DNA of 64,000 nt from Escherichia coli. GTDB lineage: Bacteria > Pseudomonadota > Gammaproteobacteria > Enterobacterales > Enterobacteriaceae. The DNA lies in NCBI RefSeq assembly GCF_048403405.1, contig NZ_CP183129.1, one strand, 5' to 3'. The position numbers were made by a program, and so were the translations under genes. Shown here one piece after another: positions 10,201 to 57,759 of this stretch. Numbering within the stretch: the stretch's first letter is position 1; each line of letters starts with the position of its first letter. A model generated the notes under the pieces. It did not search any database and was not told the origin of the DNA. It saw only the letters and a program-made list of their open reading frames with translations.

Positions 10201-11488
10201 TGCCCACCGCATCAAACTGACTCTGCGCGACGCTGCCGTCCGCGTGTTCCTTTTTCACCACCCGCTTCAGCCCGCCTTCGCCCTGCGTGTGCAGCACTTC
10301 ACGGCGGTCCAGACTGTCGGTGATGGTGATGCGGTCTTTCTCATACTGATACGTGTAGCTTAAGCCTGCCGGGTTTAGCTGCTCTGTCACCCGCCCGTCG
10401 CTGTCGTAACGGTAACGGATTTCCGGCCGGCCCGCGCGGCGGTGCGCCACCATCCGGCCCCGGTATTTATCATCGTAAGTAAAGCTGCGCACCTGTTTGC
10501 CACTGCGGTCATACACCGCCGCCAGTTCGCCGCGCGGCGTCCAGCCATAGCGTACCAGCGGCGCGGCTGGCAGGTTGTCCGGATATTCCGGGTCGTGCGT
10601 CAGCCACACGGCAGACAGACGGATGCCGTTGTCCCGGCCATATTCGGTGTAACCCGGCAGGGTATCAGGAAAAGCGGACGGTTCCGTCCCGCCGGAAATG
10701 GCCTGCTGCCGGGCCTCTTCTGCCCGCAGCGCCTGCGTGGTCAGTACCAGCCGGAAGTGACGCCCGGCACCATCCGTCACGCCGGTGATTTCGCCGCTGA
10801 ATTCGCCGCCAGCCTCACGGTGGAACGTCTGTGTGCGCCCGAAGCGGTCCACCAGCCCGGTCAGTACCCGGTACGGCGGCAGCGGCGCAGGCAGCACCTC
10901 ATCCGCCTCCGGCACCCGCTCACACCAGCCGAGTACCCACCACGGCCCCTGCGGACTGTTCGTCGCCAGATAACGATGCGGACTTAAGCGGAGTTCTTCC
11001 GGCAGCGCCTGCCAGAGTGCGGCCAGCCGGTGACCTTCATCCAGTTTCAGGACACCGCCACGCACCAGCCAGAGTGATTCGCTGCGGCTGTAACCGTCCT
11101 CACCGGGAAACAGGCGCTCAAAATACAGGCTTCTGCCGCCGTTATCACTGAGTATCAGTGTGTTATCGCGCAGCTGTAAGCGGATATCCGCAGGCATTTT
11201 CCAGCCGGGGCCGAGGCTCCCCACCGGCGCGGGCGTTTTTGTCCGGTAACTGCTGTAGGTGCGGGAGAGGATGAACGGCAGCGGGCCGGGCAGTGCAAGG
11301 TCGGTTTCGCCGGGAAGGACCTTCGCACCGAGCAGCGGATTGACCGGATGGCCGGACGTCACCCCGCCGGGGCACACCGAACAGGCCACACCGGTGGGGG
11401 CACCGATGCGCACCCCGGCTGAACCCTGGACAATGCTACCGCCATACTGCGTCATGTCGCCCTGACGCGCCGCCGGTTTTCCGCTCAT
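7289..11488 (-). CDS. rhsB: Rhs-family protein (RhsB-like) with PAAR-like N-terminus, YD-repeat core and a 151-aa divergent C-terminal tip
   Basis: 1399-aa ORF; N-terminus [42 protein letters not shown] typical of E. coli Rhs; many YD repeats; GC-rich core next to nikR as for rhsB in K-12; C-terminus after ...[11 protein letters not shown] is AT-rich and unrelated to core. Confidence 0.9.
7761..8217. repeat. Direct repeat copy B (Rhs core 3' end in main gene), homologous to 2912..3368
   Basis: See copy A. Confidence 0.85.
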
Positions 11489-11690
11489 CGTAAAATCCTT
11501 TTCTATTATTTTAATGACAGTATCTTCATACGAAAAAGCGAAGAAAAACTTGTGGTCACAATGAATTGAAGGTTTTTAGGAATATATTTAGAACGTTACA
11601 AAAGAGAAGGTTCGGATAGGGTATTTAGAGAGGAATCAGGTGTGCTAGTGGCCCTTTGTTGATCGTTCACCAAAGGACCCAATAATAGGC

Positions 11691-46015: not shown

Positions 46016-46464
46016 AATTATAATAAATATTATTGTTGATCGTTATATTATTATTCTTGCGTTATACTTTGAGAAAAGACGCGTTCATCTTCGTCAAAGA
46101 TATTATTAAATGCTGGTTTTGAAAAAAGTTCATCGGATAATATACAGTCACGAAATAAGTATCTGCTAATATTTTGTGATTTCTTTTTCAGAACGTCGAA
46201 CGGGATTTTCTTATTTAAGATATCAGAATCTTATGATTCGGGTGAAATTCTAACTAAATCAACATGTCACTAAAATCATCATAGCCATTAGCTATTTCGG
46301 CTAAAATAGAGATTACATGTCTTCGGTCCATCTCACTTAAGGAGTGTAGTTCCGTTGTAAGTTTTTCCATAGCTTGCATTGCTAAGTTTCGAACAAGGAA
46401 TTTTCTGCTGGTAATCTCTAAAAAGATGGCATGGTTTACAATGATTTTTGTTACCTTTTGATTA

Positions 46465-46959
46465 TTATGAACAACTGTCCATGATTTCGTTTAAGAATGA
46501 AGAGAAATCACTAAACGAACTGAATATATTTTCGGTGCCAATATTATCTCTAATTTCAAAAAAGTTACTTTTAATGTCATAAGTAAATATTGAAATGCTA
46601 TCATCCCCGATCACTAACCGTTCTTGTAGATCAGGGTTTATGAAATCATCATTATTTCTATAAAATTCATTTACGGCAAAAAGGTTTTTAACTGAAGGTT
46701 CTGGAATCGAGAGGCTAAATAATCGTAATCCATTAGCTTCGAATCCATCCATTGCTCTTAAAAAAGTAAGATAATCAGGTTGATTCTTAAAAAAAATACT
46801 AACTTCATTACATAACTTCTCCAGGCAATTAGTTGAATTAGAATTAAATTCTATTTGGATTATACTTTCAATAAATGATTCCTTAAGCGGTGCTTCAAAT
46901 GGATAGTCTAAATCATTCATCATTTTTTTTAATTTATTTATTTGGGTCTTAGTCATCAT
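46465..46959 (-). CDS. yrhA: Putative immunity protein for YhhZ nuclease (YrhA-like), apparently intact
   Basis: 164-aa AT-rich ORF whose start overlaps the yhhZ stop by 4 bp (46956-46959); no IS1 sequence seen. Confidence 0.6.
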   Translation of the reverse strand: MMTKTQINKLKKMMNDLDYPFEAPLKESFIESIIQIEFNSNSTNCLEKLCNEVSIFFKNQPDYLTFLRAMDGFEANGLRLFSLSIPEPSVKNLFAVNEFYRNNDDFINPDLQERLVIGDDSISIFTYDIKSNFFEIRDNIGTENIFSSFSDFSSFLNEIMDSCS

Positions 46960-48134
46960 TTTGTGGGTTCCATAATATTTTTCATGGGAGGATAAATTGA
47001 GCCAGATGGAATGGCCCAGTGAGTGATTTTGCTTTCACCTACTAATATTCCCTTAGCTATTCGTGATTGCATGTTAGTAAAAACTTTATGATATGGTTCG
47101 TTTTCGATTAATACTAAATTTTCGAAATCGTTAGCACCACCATCATCTAGAGATAGTTTATGGTGAACATTATAATTTAGAGGAACATTGCCCTTTCTCA
47201 TTCTTAAAAGGTCTTCGGCGTTGAATCTTTCAGATGCTTCGGAGGTTTTTGCAAGTTTGATAAGAAAATTTTTTCTTACAGTTTTATTAAACTCCTTTCG
47301 TAAGTTAGCTAAGTCTTTTGAAGGTCTCTTAATGTATATTATTTCTATTATGTCTATACCATCAAGAAGTTTTTGTTGACCTCTAAGTTTGCCTAAGTAA
47401 CTATTTATTTCTGTATATGTATCAACATTAGAACGCTTTGTTAAAAGAATAGATGCTGTTGCTATCGCTATGCCCGCTGTTTTTTCATTTAGTATTTGAT
47501 CATAGCCTTTTATTGCATCTCCACCCAGTTTTTCCGCAGTATCTCTGAATCCTTCAATGTTCCCATTGTATACGCCACCAGCAGCAAGTAGCCTGCCAAT
47601 AGCTTTGCTGTTTAACGCTTTTAAACCATTATTTGTTTGGTTTTTTGAATTTGGTAAAACCAAACGGTTATAATTTTCAGGGAGTGCCAAATAGCTGAAC
47701 TCGGTATTTGCGATAAGATGTTGACAGAGGATAAATTCATAACTAACAGTTATTGTTTCTGTATCCAGTTGATTTTGAATGATCTGATGATGAATAGCCG
47801 ATAAAAAAGCGCCTCTTAGTTGTATATAATAATACTTTTCCCATCTACCAAATCTATTGATTCTATAAAAGTCAAATTCCATAAATAATTGCTCATTATT
47901 GTTAATGGAATTAATAAGTAATGGAGTGCTTTTATCAATTAATTTACAAAATGTCATACCCTGTAACTGTGAACCAAGTCCCGTATTAGTAATTCTATTT
48001 GCGAGTGAGAATGTAAATATTTCATCCTCATGCCCACTCTGCCAGCGATTACCTATAGATTCAGTAGTCCCACAACCTGCGGAGATGTTTCCTTGTTGTT
48101 CTCCCGTTACTGTCAGGTAAACAATATTACTCAT
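46956..48134 (-). CDS. yhhZ: Hcp-ET type VI effector: N-terminal Hcp domain fused to C-terminal HNH/EndoVII-like nuclease (YhhZ)
   Basis: 392-aa ORF; N-terminus MSNIVYLTVTGEQQGNISAGC... is Hcp-like; C-terminus has NVHHKLSLDDGGANDFENLVLIENEPYHK, an HNH-type motif. Confidence 0.8.
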   Translation of the reverse strand: MSNIVYLTVTGEQQGNISAGCGTTESIGNRWQSGHEDEIFTFSLANRITNTGLGSQLQGMTFCKLIDKSTPLLINSINNNEQLFMEFDFYRINRFGRWEKYYYIQLRGAFLSAIHHQIIQNQLDTETITVSYEFILCQHLIANTEFSYLALPENYNRLVLPNSKNQTNNGLKALNSKAIGRLLAAGGVYNGNIEGFRDTAEKLGGDAIKGYDQILNEKTAGIAIATASILLTKRSNVDTYTEINSYLGKLRGQQKLLDGIDIIEIIYIKRPSKDLANLRKEFNKTVRKNFLIKLAKTSEASERFNAEDLLRMRKGNVPLNYNVHHKLSLDDGGANDFENLVLIENEPYHKVFTNMQSRIAKGILVGESKITHWAIPSGSIYPPMKNIMEPTK

Positions 48135-48979: not shown

Positions 48980-49071
48980 GCGATCAGGAAGACCCTCGCG
49001 GAGAACCTGAAAGCACGACATTGCTCACATTGCTTCCAGTATTACTTAGCCAGCCGGGTGCTGGCTTTTTT
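48980..49071 (+). ncRNA. ryhB: RyhB small RNA (Fur-repressed, iron-sparing)
   Basis: Sequence gcgatcaggaagaccctcgcggagaacctgaaagcacgacattgctcacattgcttccagtattacttagccagccgggtgctggctttt matches RyhB as I remember it, ending in a terminator hairpin plus T-run; located between yhhY and yhhX. Confidence 0.9.
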
Positions 49072-49190
49072 TTGATCTTTCGTTTTCAATTTATCCACGG
49101 GAAGTGCTTGTGTTCGTTATGCGCACTCCAGTAGGAACCACGTCCGCTTTGCGCTAAGGTGTAAATAATCACCTTAAAAAGGACGAAATC

Positions 49191-54275: not shown

Positions 54276-54287
54276 TTACTGCGACAA

Positions 54288-54327
54288 ATTACTGCGAGCT
54301 TGCTCGCAGTAATTCATTTCTCTTTTC
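54288..54327 (+). terminator. Rho-independent-like terminator after gntU
   Basis: Stem actgcgag / ctcgcagt followed by T-rich tract. Confidence 0.5.
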
Positions 54328-54412
54328 ACCTGTCTTCATCTTTTTGATCTTTCTCGCAAAAAGACCGGAACATTATCCGTTCTAATCACTGCGTTAACGG
54401 ACGAGGGAGAAG

Positions 54413-56512
54413 ATGATGGAGAAACACGGAGCTGAATTGCTTTTACAGCGGATGTTAGGAAATACCACCGCTACTTTCAGGGAAGGGCAATGGGAAGCCA
54501 TAGATGCAGTGGTTAATCAGCGGCGAAAACTGCTGGTTGTACAGCGCACCGGCTGGGGGAAAAGTGCCGTGTACTTCATCGCCAGTAAAATCTTCCGAGA
54601 TCGCGGCGCTGGCCCGACAATTATCATCTCTCCTTTGCTTGCCCTGATGCGTAACCAGGTTGCCGCCGCTGAACGGTTAGGTATTACGGCTGAAACGTTG
54701 AATTCTACAAACAGGGAAGAATGGCAGCGCATTAGCGATAAGTTGCTGCAAGGTGAGGTCGATTGCTTGCTGGTTTCCCCGGAACGTTTGGCAAACCAGG
54801 ACTTTATCGAAACGGTTTTGTATCCTATAGCCGATCGTATTGGCTTGCTTGTTGTCGACGAGGCGCACTGCATCTCTGATTGGGGCCACGATTTTCGCCC
54901 GGATTACCGACGTATATTAGATATTTTGCGCCAACTGCCTGCGAATACCCCTGTTCTGGGTACAACCGCGACAGCGAATAACCGTGTTGTTGAGGATATC
55001 CGTCAGCAATTGGGTGACATTGTGATTCAGCGTGGAACGCTGGCTCGCGAAAGTTTGGCGCTTGATGCCTTAGTCTTAGGAGAACAGTCATCCCGTCTGG
55101 CATGGTTAGCAACGGTTATCCCTCAGTTTTCCAAATCGGGAATTGTTTATACCCTGACGACTCGCGATGCTGAACTTGTCGCCGAGTGGTTAAGGAAAAA
55201 TGGTATCAGTGCATTTGCTTACTACAGCGGCGTGACTTGTGAAGGCGCGGAAGATTCTAATACTGCCAGGGAATATCTGGAGCAGGCACTGCTGGCAAAT
55301 AAAATCAAAGTGCTGGTCGCGACGACGGCATTAGGTATGGGGTTTGATAAACCTGATTTAGGTTTCGTCATTCATTATCAGATGCCGGGGTCTATTGTCG
55401 GTTACTACCAACAGGTGGGGCGTGCCGGGCGTGCTATAGATTCCGCAGTTGGCATATTGCTTTGTGGTGGTGAAGACCGCGCTATTCATCAATTCTTCCG
55501 TGAAAGCGCCTTTCCTGCGGAGGCGCAAATTCATGAAATACTCAACGTACTTAGCGAGAATGACGGTCTTACCCTACGAGGCATTGAACAACGGACGAAT
55601 CTTCGTTATGGGCAAATAGAAAAAGCACTGAAATTATTGGTAGCGGAAAATCCATCGCCTGTGGTGTATACCGAGAAATTATGGCGCAGAACTATCGTCA
55701 GTTTTTCTCCTGATCATGAACGAATTAACCATTTGATGAATCAGAGAAAAAGTGAGCTGGCAGACGTTGAAAGCTATATCACGACCAAGGAGTGCAAAAT
55801 GCAATTTCTGCGCCGTGCACTCGATGAGCCAAGTGCCGAACGTTGTGGTAAATGTAGTAGTTGTCTTCAGCATCCGTTATTGTCGCCCGACATTGATAGC
55901 GGCTTACTCCATGCGGCAAATTTATTTATTAAACACGCTGACCTGCCGTTAAATCTCAATAAACAGGTGGCAGCTGGGGCTTTTACGCAATACGGATTTA
56001 AAGGGAACTTGCCTGCGGGTTTACAAGGATCTACGGGGCGAATCCTTTCTCGTTGGGGAGATTCCGGGTGGGGAAAGCAGGTAGCACAGGAGAAAAAAAC
56101 GGGGCGCTTCAGTGATGAGCTGGTAGAAGCATGTGCGGAAATGGTTCGCCAACGCTGGAATCCGCATCCTGAACCAACCTGGGTATGCTGCGTTCCTTCA
56201 TTAAGACACCTCGACCTGGTTCCTGATTTTGCCCGGCGACTGGCGGCGAAACTTGGCTTACCTTTTATTGATGCCATTGAAAAAGTCGTGGACAATCCAC
56301 CGCAGAAAATGCAGCAAAACCGTTTTCACCAGTGTCAAAATCTCGACGGGGCGTTTGTGATTACCCCTCCTTTGATGCCAGGTCCGGCGTTGCTGGTTGA
56401 CGATATCGTGGATTCTGCATGGACGCTGACAGTTCTGACAGCACTGTTACGCCAGGCAGGTTGCCCGACGGTTTATCCTCTTGCCCTTGCTTCTACCTCG
56501 GTAAAAAATTGA
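54413..56512 (+). CDS. RecQ-family DEAH helicase fused to C-terminal phosphoribosyltransferase (PRTase/ComF-like) domain
   Basis: 699-aa ORF; Walker A QRTGWGKSAV; DEAH box VVDEAHCISDWGHDFRPDY typical of RecQ; C-terminal ~200 aa ends with PRPP-motif-like LLVDDIVDSAWTL; SD-like gagggaga upstream; start could be 54413 or 54416. Confidence 0.75.
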   Translation: MMEKHGAELLLQRMLGNTTATFREGQWEAIDAVVNQRRKLLVVQRTGWGKSAVYFIASKIFRDRGAGPTIIISPLLALMRNQVAAAERLGITAETLNSTNREEWQRISDKLLQGEVDCLLVSPERLANQDFIETVLYPIADRIGLLVVDEAHCISDWGHDFRPDYRRILDILRQLPANTPVLGTTATANNRVVEDIRQQLGDIVIQRGTLARESLALDALVLGEQSSRLAWLATVIPQFSKSGIVYTLTTRDAELVAEWLRKNGISAFAYYSGVTCEGAEDSNTAREYLEQALLANKIKVLVATTALGMGFDKPDLGFVIHYQMPGSIVGYYQQVGRAGRAIDSAVGILLCGGEDRAIHQFFRESAFPAEAQIHEILNVLSENDGLTLRGIEQRTNLRYGQIEKALKLLVAENPSPVVYTEKLWRRTIVSFSPDHERINHLMNQRKSELADVESYITTKECKMQFLRRALDEPSAERCGKCSSCLQHPLLSPDIDSGLLHAANLFIKHADLPLNLNKQVAAGAFTQYGFKGNLPAGLQGSTGRILSRWGDSGWGKQVAQEKKTGRFSDELVEACAEMVRQRWNPHPEPTWVCCVPSLRHLDLVPDFARRLAAKLGLPFIDAIEKVVDNPPQKMQQNRFHQCQNLDGAFVITPPLMPGPALLVDDIVDSAWTLTVLTALLRQAGCPTVYPLALASTSVKN

Positions 56513-57714
56513 TGAATCTTTCAGCCAATGCACAAGCAACCCTCCTGCTAACCAGCGATTTTTCTCGCGCGGCGGCGAGTGAGTATAAACCTCTTAGTAA
56601 TAGTGAATGGGGGAAGTTTGCATTATGGCTGAAGCACCAACGTATCAGTCCCGCCGATCTTCTGGTGCCGCAACCGCAAGAGAAACTTACAGGCTGGAGC
56701 GATCCGCGTATTTCTCAGGAGCGTATTCTTGGCTTGCTGGCGCGTGGTCATAGTCTGGCGTTGGCGGTAGATAAGTGGCAACGCGCCGGATTATGGATCT
56801 TAACCCGCGGAGATGCCGATTATCCCGTTCGCTTGAAAAACCGATTGCGAACGGATGCTCCTCCCGTTTTATTTGGCTGCGGGAATAAAGCATTATTGCA
56901 AGCGGAAGGTATGGCGATTGTTGGCTCGCGAGATGCTCCGACTGCCGATTTGCGCTATACCCAACAACTGGCAGCGAAACTGGCCCAACAGGGGATTTGC
57001 GTTATCTCTGGTGGTGCGCGAGGTATTGATGAATGTGCAATGGCGTCGGCACTGGAGGCCGGGGGAACTGCCGTTGGCGTATTAGCTGATAGTTTGTTAA
57101 AAACAAGCACGTTAGTGAAATGGCGTAAAGGGCTTATAGCAGGCAACCTGGTGTTGATTTCACCGTTTTACCCAGAGGTACGTTTCACTGTCGGCAATGC
57201 GATGGCGCGGAATAAATATATTTATTGCCTTGCTGAAAGCGCAATGGTTGTACGTGCGGGAATGACCGGTGGAACGATAACCGGAGCGATGGAGGCGTTA
57301 AAACATCAGTGGCTGCCTGTTCTGGTTAAACCAAATCAGGATGTGCAATCAGCCAATTCACGTTTAGTAGAAAATGGGGCGTCATGGAGTGCTGAACAGG
57401 CTGAGAATGTGACGATCAGACTGCCAGATGTTCCTGGGCTGATGTATGACAGAGCACTCCGTAACGCTCAACCAGAATTGTTTTCGCTGCACGAAGATGA
57501 CGCAAATTACGCAGTAATGCCCGCGCATACCCCTGTCGATTTTTATCAACTCTTTGTGGCGGAACTGGCGATCCTTGCAAAGGAATCGATAAGTATTGAA
57601 AGGCTGGCGTCTTGTACTGGTTTAACCATCGAACAAATTAGTGTGTGGCTGAACCGCGCAGAAGAAGAGGGAAGGGTTATCCGATTGGGCGAAGGTCATT
57701 ATCAGTTCAGGTAA
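56512..57714 (+). CDS. DprA/Smf-like (SLOG Rossmann) protein with C-terminal winged-helix-like region
   Basis: Start ATG overlaps upstream stop (TGATG at 56510-56514); core IVGSRDAPTADLRYTQQLAAKLAQQGICVISGGARGIDECAMASALEAGGTAVGVLADSL resembles DprA Rossmann domain; 400 aa from this start. Confidence 0.7.
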   Translation: MNLSANAQATLLLTSDFSRAAASEYKPLSNSEWGKFALWLKHQRISPADLLVPQPQEKLTGWSDPRISQERILGLLARGHSLALAVDKWQRAGLWILTRGDADYPVRLKNRLRTDAPPVLFGCGNKALLQAEGMAIVGSRDAPTADLRYTQQLAAKLAQQGICVISGGARGIDECAMASALEAGGTAVGVLADSLLKTSTLVKWRKGLIAGNLVLISPFYPEVRFTVGNAMARNKYIYCLAESAMVVRAGMTGGTITGAMEALKHQWLPVLVKPNQDVQSANSRLVENGASWSAEQAENVTIRLPDVPGLMYDRALRNAQPELFSLHEDDANYAVMPAHTPVDFYQLFVAELAILAKESISIERLASCTGLTIEQISVWLNRAEEEGRVIRLGEGHYQFR

Positions 57715-57759
57715 TAAAACAGGTGCCGCGTCTGGTTGTGTGCAGCACCTGTTTGAACC

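Follow-up and report, generated by a model that had tools for sequence, protein, structure and literature searches.

A gene pair between gntU and yhgN of Escherichia coli identified as the chromosomal rqlH-rqlI operon of the PsyrTA family

Introduction

Two overlapping genes lying between gntU and yhgN in a 64,000-nucleotide stretch of Escherichia coli contig NZ_CP183129.1 (assembly GCF_048403405.1; the whole stretch is called the window below) were analysed. The first encodes a RecQ-like helicase joined to a phosphoribosyltransferase (PRTase) and the second a DprA-like protein. The closest described pair is RqlHI of the extraintestinal pathogenic E. coli strains F11, CFT073, and 536 (PMC4670107), which has the same gene order, overlap, and protein lengths and, in CFT073, the same gntU-yhgN locus. 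Reverse transcription PCR gave evidence that rqlH and rqlI form one operon with a single transcript and an overlapping start (PMC4670107). RqlH alone (F11 allele in MG1655) was genotoxic, causing DNA damage with SOS induction, filamentation, a raised mutation rate, and inhibition or arrest of growth (PMC4670107). This toxicity needed the PRTase domain and its residue D663, mutation of which abolished it; the PRTase domain alone was insufficient, and other parts of RqlH were required (PMC4670107). Helicase-dead mutants were more harmful, the helicase activity restraining the PRTase, while RqlI was shown to bind RqlH and to neutralise it through its N-terminal and DprA/SLOG parts (PMC4670107).

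The same order, a helicase-PRTase toxin followed by a DprA-like antitoxin, is found in PsyrTA of Pseudomonas syringae, the name of which comes from Sberro 2013 and Millman 2022; these reports list it as an anti-phage toxin-antitoxin system. A PsyrTA homologue is reported as protective against phage (Millman 2022), and a psyrA deletion as untransformable. The literature equates PsyrTA with RqlHI. The RqlH homologue of Mycobacterium smegmatis (MSMEG_5935) has the same RecQ-like ATPase, zinc motif, and C-terminal PRTase, with 41% identity to F11 RqlH (PMC4670107). The M. smegmatis protein was shown to work as a RecQ-like helicase that depends on ATP and has 3'-5' polarity (Ordonez et al. 2012, cited in PMC4670107). 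Like nearly all Gram-positive carriers, and unlike the pair in the window, it has no RqlI partner.

ShosTA, or DprA-PRTase (Kimelman 2012; Rousset 2022; PMC11961720; PMC12961424), likewise combines a PRTase toxin with a DprA-like antitoxin, and likewise shows DNA damage, filamentation, and an anti-phage role. Its PRTase disturbs purine metabolism and needs binding of phosphoribosyl pyrophosphate (PRPP). ShosT is a stand-alone protein without a helicase, whereas the PRTase of RqlH is fused to a RecQ-like module of 500 amino acids. A preprint of September 2025 gives the PRTase of ShosT as the only characterised one and calls that of PsyrT uncharacterised. The theme of helicase, PRTase, and DprA also recalls the DNA-uptake machinery (ComFA helicase and ComF), from which the pair in the window differs in having no competence gene context, a RecQ-type helicase, and a documented activity that is toxicity and not DNA uptake.

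Identity of the gene pair

Comparison with the PADLOC models showed full-length matches to PsyrTA for both genes. The first gene matched PsyrT with E = 0 and 1068 bits over model positions 4-687 of 689, and the second matched PsyrA at 1.6e-201 and 668 bits over positions 1-397 of 398. E. coli CFT073, which is among the strains in which an rqlI deletion was studied (PMC4670107), carries both genes between gntU and yhgN, and the window proteins were identical to those of CFT073 at 689 of 698 positions (99%) for RqlH and 393 of 400 (98%) for RqlI, with 9 and 7 substitutions, respectively. Strain F11 was compared by its published lengths and residues and not by sequence. In F11, RqlH has 698 and RqlI 400 amino acids, the helicase mutants are K49A and D148A, the PRTase mutants D663A and DIVD663EVME, and the PRTase comprises amino acids 509-690 (PMC4670107). 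The lengths of the window proteins and the positions of K49, D148, and DIVD663 agreed exactly with these when counted from the second ATG of the first gene. The exact window sequences of both proteins were abundant in public data.

As judged by sequence, the gene pair is the chromosomal rqlH-rqlI operon of E. coli, a two-gene toxin-antitoxin-like module of the PsyrTA family. From the near-identity to the published allele, RqlH of the window would be expected to be toxic, and RqlI to bind and neutralise it. The locus is real, already described and catalogued, and stands at its usual chromosomal site; the arrangement is not new, because PsyrT and PsyrA models exist and the genes are nearly identical to the experimentally studied ones of CFT073. 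A first-pass annotation of the window, made from the sequence alone, had placed two genes at 54413-57714, and both open reading frames (ORFs) were found there, one at 54413-56512 (+) and a second one ending at 57714 (+). It had offered the pair as a candidate antiphage or toxin-antitoxin-like module, which may sense or process phage DNA ends, of an arrangement not recognised as characterised. The module reading stands, as the pair is toxin-antitoxin-like and belongs to a family listed as anti-phage, while the claim of a new arrangement falls, the exact layout being that of RqlH-RqlI (PMC4670107) with dedicated PADLOC models. The PADLOC search that it had proposed is the one that returned PsyrT and PsyrA. 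In RefSeq the two are named "RecQ family ATP-dependent DNA helicase" and "DNA-processing protein DprA", from which their known identity as RqlHI/PsyrTA cannot be seen.

Helicase core of RqlH

The RecQ helicase core expected by the first-pass annotation was present. RqlH scored 252.8 bits against TIGR00614 recQ_fam (cutoff 219.8), matched the Pfam families DEAD (5e-25) and Helicase_C (4e-13), and matched the E. coli RecQ structure 1oyw in the PDB at 2e-53. The motifs quoted in that annotation were located at residue 44 (QRTGWGKSAV), residue 147 (VVDEAHCISDWGHDFRPDY), and residue 660 (LLVDDIVDSAWTL) of the 699-residue reading; the Walker A lysine is K49 and the DEAH aspartate D148 in the 698-residue numbering. 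A zinc motif followed, with cysteines read from the translation and a Pfam RecQ_Zn_bind match of E = 0.0014, and the middle fragment of the protein matched TIGR01389 over model positions 351-396 at 2.2e-05. Pfam showed no HRDC or RQC domain in RqlH, and the PRTase domain takes the position of these domains. Sequence search found no solved structure of RqlH or RqlI, only relatives among the RecQ-family helicases, DprA, and ShosA.

The RefSeq names would suit ordinary housekeeping recQ and competence dprA copies, an explanation that was given practically no credence. RqlH fell below the RecQ equivalog cutoffs (296 against 640 bits for TIGR01389; 226 against 1015 for PRK11057), as did RqlI below that of canonical dprA (TIGR00732, 102.7 against 191.15 bits). 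Canonical recQ plus dprA was ruled out by these scores, by the PRTase in place of HRDC/RQC, and by the presence/absence data given below, in which K-12 and 70% of genomes lack the pair. Neither an HRDC/RQC region nor a canonical dprA, the two outcomes that the first-pass annotation had named as contrary to its reading, was found.

A Dpd system of 7-deazaguanine DNA modification was also considered. PADLOC gave many "DpdF" matches, which are explained by the general resemblance among RecQ-like helicases and by two short models that cover the PRTase part only. These two, PDLC02869 (1.3e-54) and PDLC02866 (4e-14), matched the PRTase domain of RqlH alone (window 55895-56509); they have the appearance of PsyrT fragments filed under the wrong name, and false DpdF calls could result from them. 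DpdF and the Dpd system were ruled out by a score of 149 bits against NF041063 (cutoff 550) and by the lack of dpd neighbours.

C-terminal PRTase domain of RqlH

Support for a PRTase from the single sequence was marginal (Pfam E = 0.0087, NCBIfam 0.01-0.1, PDB phmmer 0.26). As this was too weak, a family alignment of 39 sequences and a structure model were made. Relatives were gathered with RqlH residues 495-699, giving 1,655 clusters at E <= 0.001, and the alignment consisted of the query domain and 38 trimmed relatives. Searched against the PDB, the family profile aligned over the PRPP loop with PRPP synthetases (2.5e-06), and its next matches were HGPRT and PurF. Of the 39 aligned sequences, 26 had a Pfam Pribosyltran match at E <= 0.001, and every one had such a match at E <= 0.1. 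The AlphaFold model of the domain had a pLDDT (predicted local distance difference test) of 95.9. The top 50 Foldseek matches in the PDB were all PRTase-fold enzymes (phosphoribosyltransferases and PRPP synthetases), including Helicobacter pylori ComF (7p0h), which had the highest query TM-score listed, 0.48. The acidic PRPP-binding loop LLVDDIVDS was present. The predicted C-terminal type I PRTase, likewise anticipated by the first-pass annotation, is weak as a single-sequence call and firm at the family level and by its modelled fold.

The partner protein RqlI

The DprA domain of RqlI matched Pfam DNA_processg_A (PF02481) at 7e-50, with an overlapping SLOG cluster4 match at 3e-11, in agreement with the DprA/SLOG-like assignment of the first-pass annotation. 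ShosA models matched RqlI too (3.3e-27 and 2.2e-08), with matches that were confined to the DprA core and much weaker than that of PsyrA, and the ShosA structure 9vzo matched at 6e-08.

The stronger of the two ShosA model matches, and the combination of PRTase and DprA common to both systems, are what would favour a new helicase-bearing variant of ShosTA. This explanation has hardly any probability, given that the PsyrT and PsyrA models fit far better, that the architecture has been published since 2012-2015, and that the genes share 99% and 98% identity with experimentally studied ones. Membership in ShosTA was ruled out by the helicase fused to the toxin, by the lack of a ShosT model match to the PRTase domain at E <= 1, and by the far better score of PsyrA than of ShosA.

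Coordinates and gene starts

The features of the locus are shown in Table 1. For the first gene, the ORF list also gave an in-frame ATG at 54413, with a product of 699 amino acids. The second ATG, at 54416, is the likely start, because it was chosen by the Prokaryotic Genome Annotation Pipeline (PGAP) in an identical genome, has the better Shine-Dalgarno spacing, and reproduces the published residue numbering; the GGGAG sequence closely precedes both candidate ATGs, at 6 nt from the second one. For the second gene, PGAP and the ORF lister gave a longer form of 431 amino acids from an upstream ATG at 56419, which overlaps rqlH by 94 nt. The form of 400 amino acids is supported over it, because its length is that published for RqlI and the PsyrA model aligns with it from one end to the other. 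The TGATG stop/start overlap read by the first-pass annotation was real.

The hairpin at the start of the segment is likely to be the gntU terminator of this allele, and the inverted repeat at its end, part of the variable segment, is likely a bidirectional terminator, which a simple terminator scan did not call. A simple promoter scan found no sigma-70 consensus site on the + strand upstream of rqlH.

Table 1. Positions of the rqlHI locus features in the window
Feature	Position	Strand	Description
gntU-yhgN extra segment	54276-57759		3,484 bp between both stop codons; carries the two overlapping genes
Upstream non-coding part	54276-54412	+	Terminator-like hairpin, presumed rqlHI promoter region, GGGAG Shine-Dalgarno
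Hairpin	54287-54314		12-bp stem and T-run; RNA fold -16.6 kcal/mol, z = -5.0
rqlH / psyrT	54416-56512	+	698-amino-acid RecQ-like helicase-PRTase fusion, toxin component
Superfamily 2 (SF2) RecQ-type helicase core	54482-55435	+	DEAD and Helicase_C domains
RecQ-type tetracysteine zinc-binding motif	55793-55864	+	C461-X16-C478-X2-C481-X2-C484 (699-residue numbering)
C-terminal type I PRTase domain (predicted)	55940-56485	+	Published limits, amino acids 509-690
PRPP-binding loop LLVDDIVDSAWT	56390-56425		Within the PRTase domain; contains D663
rqlH/rqlI overlap, TGATG	56510-56514	+	TGA 56510-56512, ATG 56512-56514, A common to both
rqlI / psyrA	56512-57714	+	400-amino-acid DprA/SLOG-like neutralising partner; C-terminal helix-turn-helix-like region
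DprA domain of rqlI	roughly 56776-57387		Pfam
Inverted repeat	57717-57754		Flanked by the stop codons of convergent rqlI and yhgN; fold -18.9 kcal/mol, z = -3.2

The gntU-yhgN site across genomes

The first-pass annotation had stated that gntU and yhgN are adjacent in K-12 and had described the extra genes as an insertion between them. In MG1655 the two genes are convergent, with stop codons 56 bp apart, which bears out the adjacency. A search of 5,426 complete E. coli genomes for the segment, a junction comparison also proposed in that annotation, showed that 1,650 (30%) carried it, always on the chromosome, usually in one copy, and at 95-100% identity, while the K-12-type empty junction was intact in 3,774. 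The pair is accordingly not universally conserved. Because the two classes sum to all 5,424 genomes matched, the site is, by sequence comparison, a two-state presence/absence polymorphism.

No sequence in common was found between the 56-bp K-12 spacer and the 3,484 bp of the window, so the intergenic region is cleanly replaced as a block, as opposed to the K-12 spacer having received an insertion. No flanking repeats, integrase, or transposase gene were found at the segment, and its guanine plus cytosine (GC) content, another comparison proposed in the first-pass annotation, was 0.45-0.53, much as in the neighbouring DNA and without anomaly. A mobile-element insertion was ruled out on these grounds, and an old presence/absence polymorphism was preferred; of the earlier description, the extra genes stand and the insertion does not. 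Carriers differed from one another in the segment about as much as in the 24 kb around it, at the level of the core genome, which favours a long stay at the site over a recent transfer.

Variants and carriage on plasmids and phages

Decayed forms of the locus were observed. In the O157:H7 strain 7636, rqlH is a pseudogene, in which 1 bp is missing at the counterpart of window position 54931 and 29 bp are inserted at that of 56203, and rqlI is intact, leaving an orphaned antitoxin; two other records had the same two-piece match pattern. Isolate NRZ94505 (locus 2421-5586) has an ISEcp1-blaCTX-M-15 unit where the 5' part of rqlH should be; what is left of the gene is a PRTase-only fragment, called "ComF family protein" by PGAP, ahead of an intact rqlI.

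Among 72,556 plasmids, full-length helicase-PRTase homologues were confined to 12, and a query with the PRTase domain gave no match in 50,697 phage records. The IncF plasmid NZ_OX030731.1 of E. coli isolate 68 carries a divergent RqlH/RqlI pair (4001-7518; 60.7% and 49% amino-acid identity, respectively) inside a type I restriction-modification operon, where it is flanked by hsdS and hsdR; this is a typical defence context. The chromosome NZ_OX030728.1, probably of the same isolate, was 100% identical to the window at 40-64 kb; if it is the chromosome of isolate 68, that isolate carries two PsyrTA-type systems. Homologues of full length and about 43% identity were also seen on haloarchaeal plasmids (Halomicrobium and Halanaeroarchaeum), and the helicase-PRTase architecture therefore extends to Archaea.

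Proposed mechanism and role

The proposal that phage releases the toxin was made because of the analogy with ShosTA and because a PsyrTA homologue is published as having a defence phenotype. On infection, the phage would upset the balance between RqlH and RqlI and so free the PRTase activity, which would corrupt nucleotide or DNA metabolism and stop both cell and phage from replicating. The outcome would be abortive or replication-arrest immunity. The whole explanation, comprising the RqlHI/PsyrTA identity, a toxin-antitoxin-like mechanism, and this presumed phage-triggered release, is held to be very probable.

Several observations weigh against this explanation. The reported phage protection belongs to a homologue, while one native E. 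coli system, PsyrTA of strain NILS69, gave no detectable protection and a growth defect in MG1655. RqlHI has traits that are non-canonical for a toxin-antitoxin pair (large proteins and the toxin gene first; PMC4670107), and many Gram-positive bacteria have RqlH alone without RqlI (PMC4670107). The locus lies outside any defence island, flanked by core metabolic genes, with gntRKU on one side and yhgN-asd on the other. No ShosT or retron PRTase model matched the PRTase domain of RqlH at E <= 1; for this reason the mechanistic analogy with ShosT is loose, and a PRTase chemistry different from that of ShosT is possible.

The main live alternative, although unlikely, is that RqlH and RqlI form a cooperative system of DNA maintenance or modification, in which the PRTase modifies a nucleotide that is part of DNA or close to it, RqlI and the helicase resolve the change, and toxicity is a by-product of the unbalanced pathway. 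This was the original model of Russell and Mulvey and is in line with their data (PMC4670107). The Gram-positive carriers of RqlH without RqlI favour it too, as do the stable chromosomal locus with its core-like divergence and lack of island context, and the absence of protection by the NILS69 system. Against it stand a double deletion of rqlHI with no fitness defect detected in vitro or in mice (PMC4670107), the 70% of E. coli genomes that lack the pair altogether, the phage protection reported for a homologue, the paralogue embedded in a type I restriction-modification operon, and the decay of rqlH in O157:H7.

A related suggestion on the chemistry is that the RecQ-like helicase delivers the PRTase to DNA, where it may act on DNA or DNA-proximal nucleobases, e.g., by phosphoribosylation or base exchange, and RqlI, with its DprA/SLOG fold, then recognises or reverses the lesion. 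The idea of a PRTase acting at DNA was raised by Russell and Mulvey in 2015 (PMC4670107); ShosT is instead reported to act on the free purine pool, which it depletes or corrupts. This suggestion was regarded as speculative and rather improbable.

Somewhat less likely still than DNA maintenance is that the pair is purely selfish, an addiction module that persists through post-segregational toxicity and does not benefit the host. The toxin-antitoxin-like behaviour is documented, deletions of psyrA and rqlI are deleterious or unobtainable, and decay removes the toxin first and keeps the antitoxin, as in O157:H7 and after the ISEcp1 insertion, all of which would fit addiction; but the site is a fixed chromosomal one and not mobile DNA, homologues are rare on plasmids and the PRTase domain had no match among phage records, and family members give phage protection. 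Neither this explanation nor DNA maintenance alters the identification of the pair as rqlHI/PsyrTA.

Other features of the window

The RyhB small RNA was found at 49009-49073 (+), with a full-length Rfam match of 83 bits, in its ordinary K-12 position near yhhX. An Rhs element occupied about 1,200-11,500, and behind its core protein of 4.2 kb came orphan Rhs tips, NTF2-fold immunity genes, and insertion sequence (IS) fragments; the annotation of this element was transferred from strain 4621 with an offset of +776. The genes tssD (yhhZ, a type VI effector of the Hcp family) and yrhA, at about 46,460-48,130 (-), adjoin the gnt locus. In the panM-livK intergenic region, at about 32,900, there was no copy of IS1, in contrast to the closest relative, strain 4621, which has one. 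Judged from these comparisons, the window genome is a near relative of strain 4621 (99.9% identical upstream) and not the same genome, because the IS1 copy of 4621 is absent.

Significance of the locus

As a discovery, rqlHI offers nothing new, having been described in 2013-2015 and catalogued as PsyrTA in PADLOC and DefenseFinder. What scientific value remains is in the enzymology of the family, and the window does not advance it. The analysis is of practical use in that the identification corrects RefSeq-style names that hide a known toxin-antitoxin/defence module, and the gntU-yhgN site provides a clean two-state polymorphism that is suited to comparative work.

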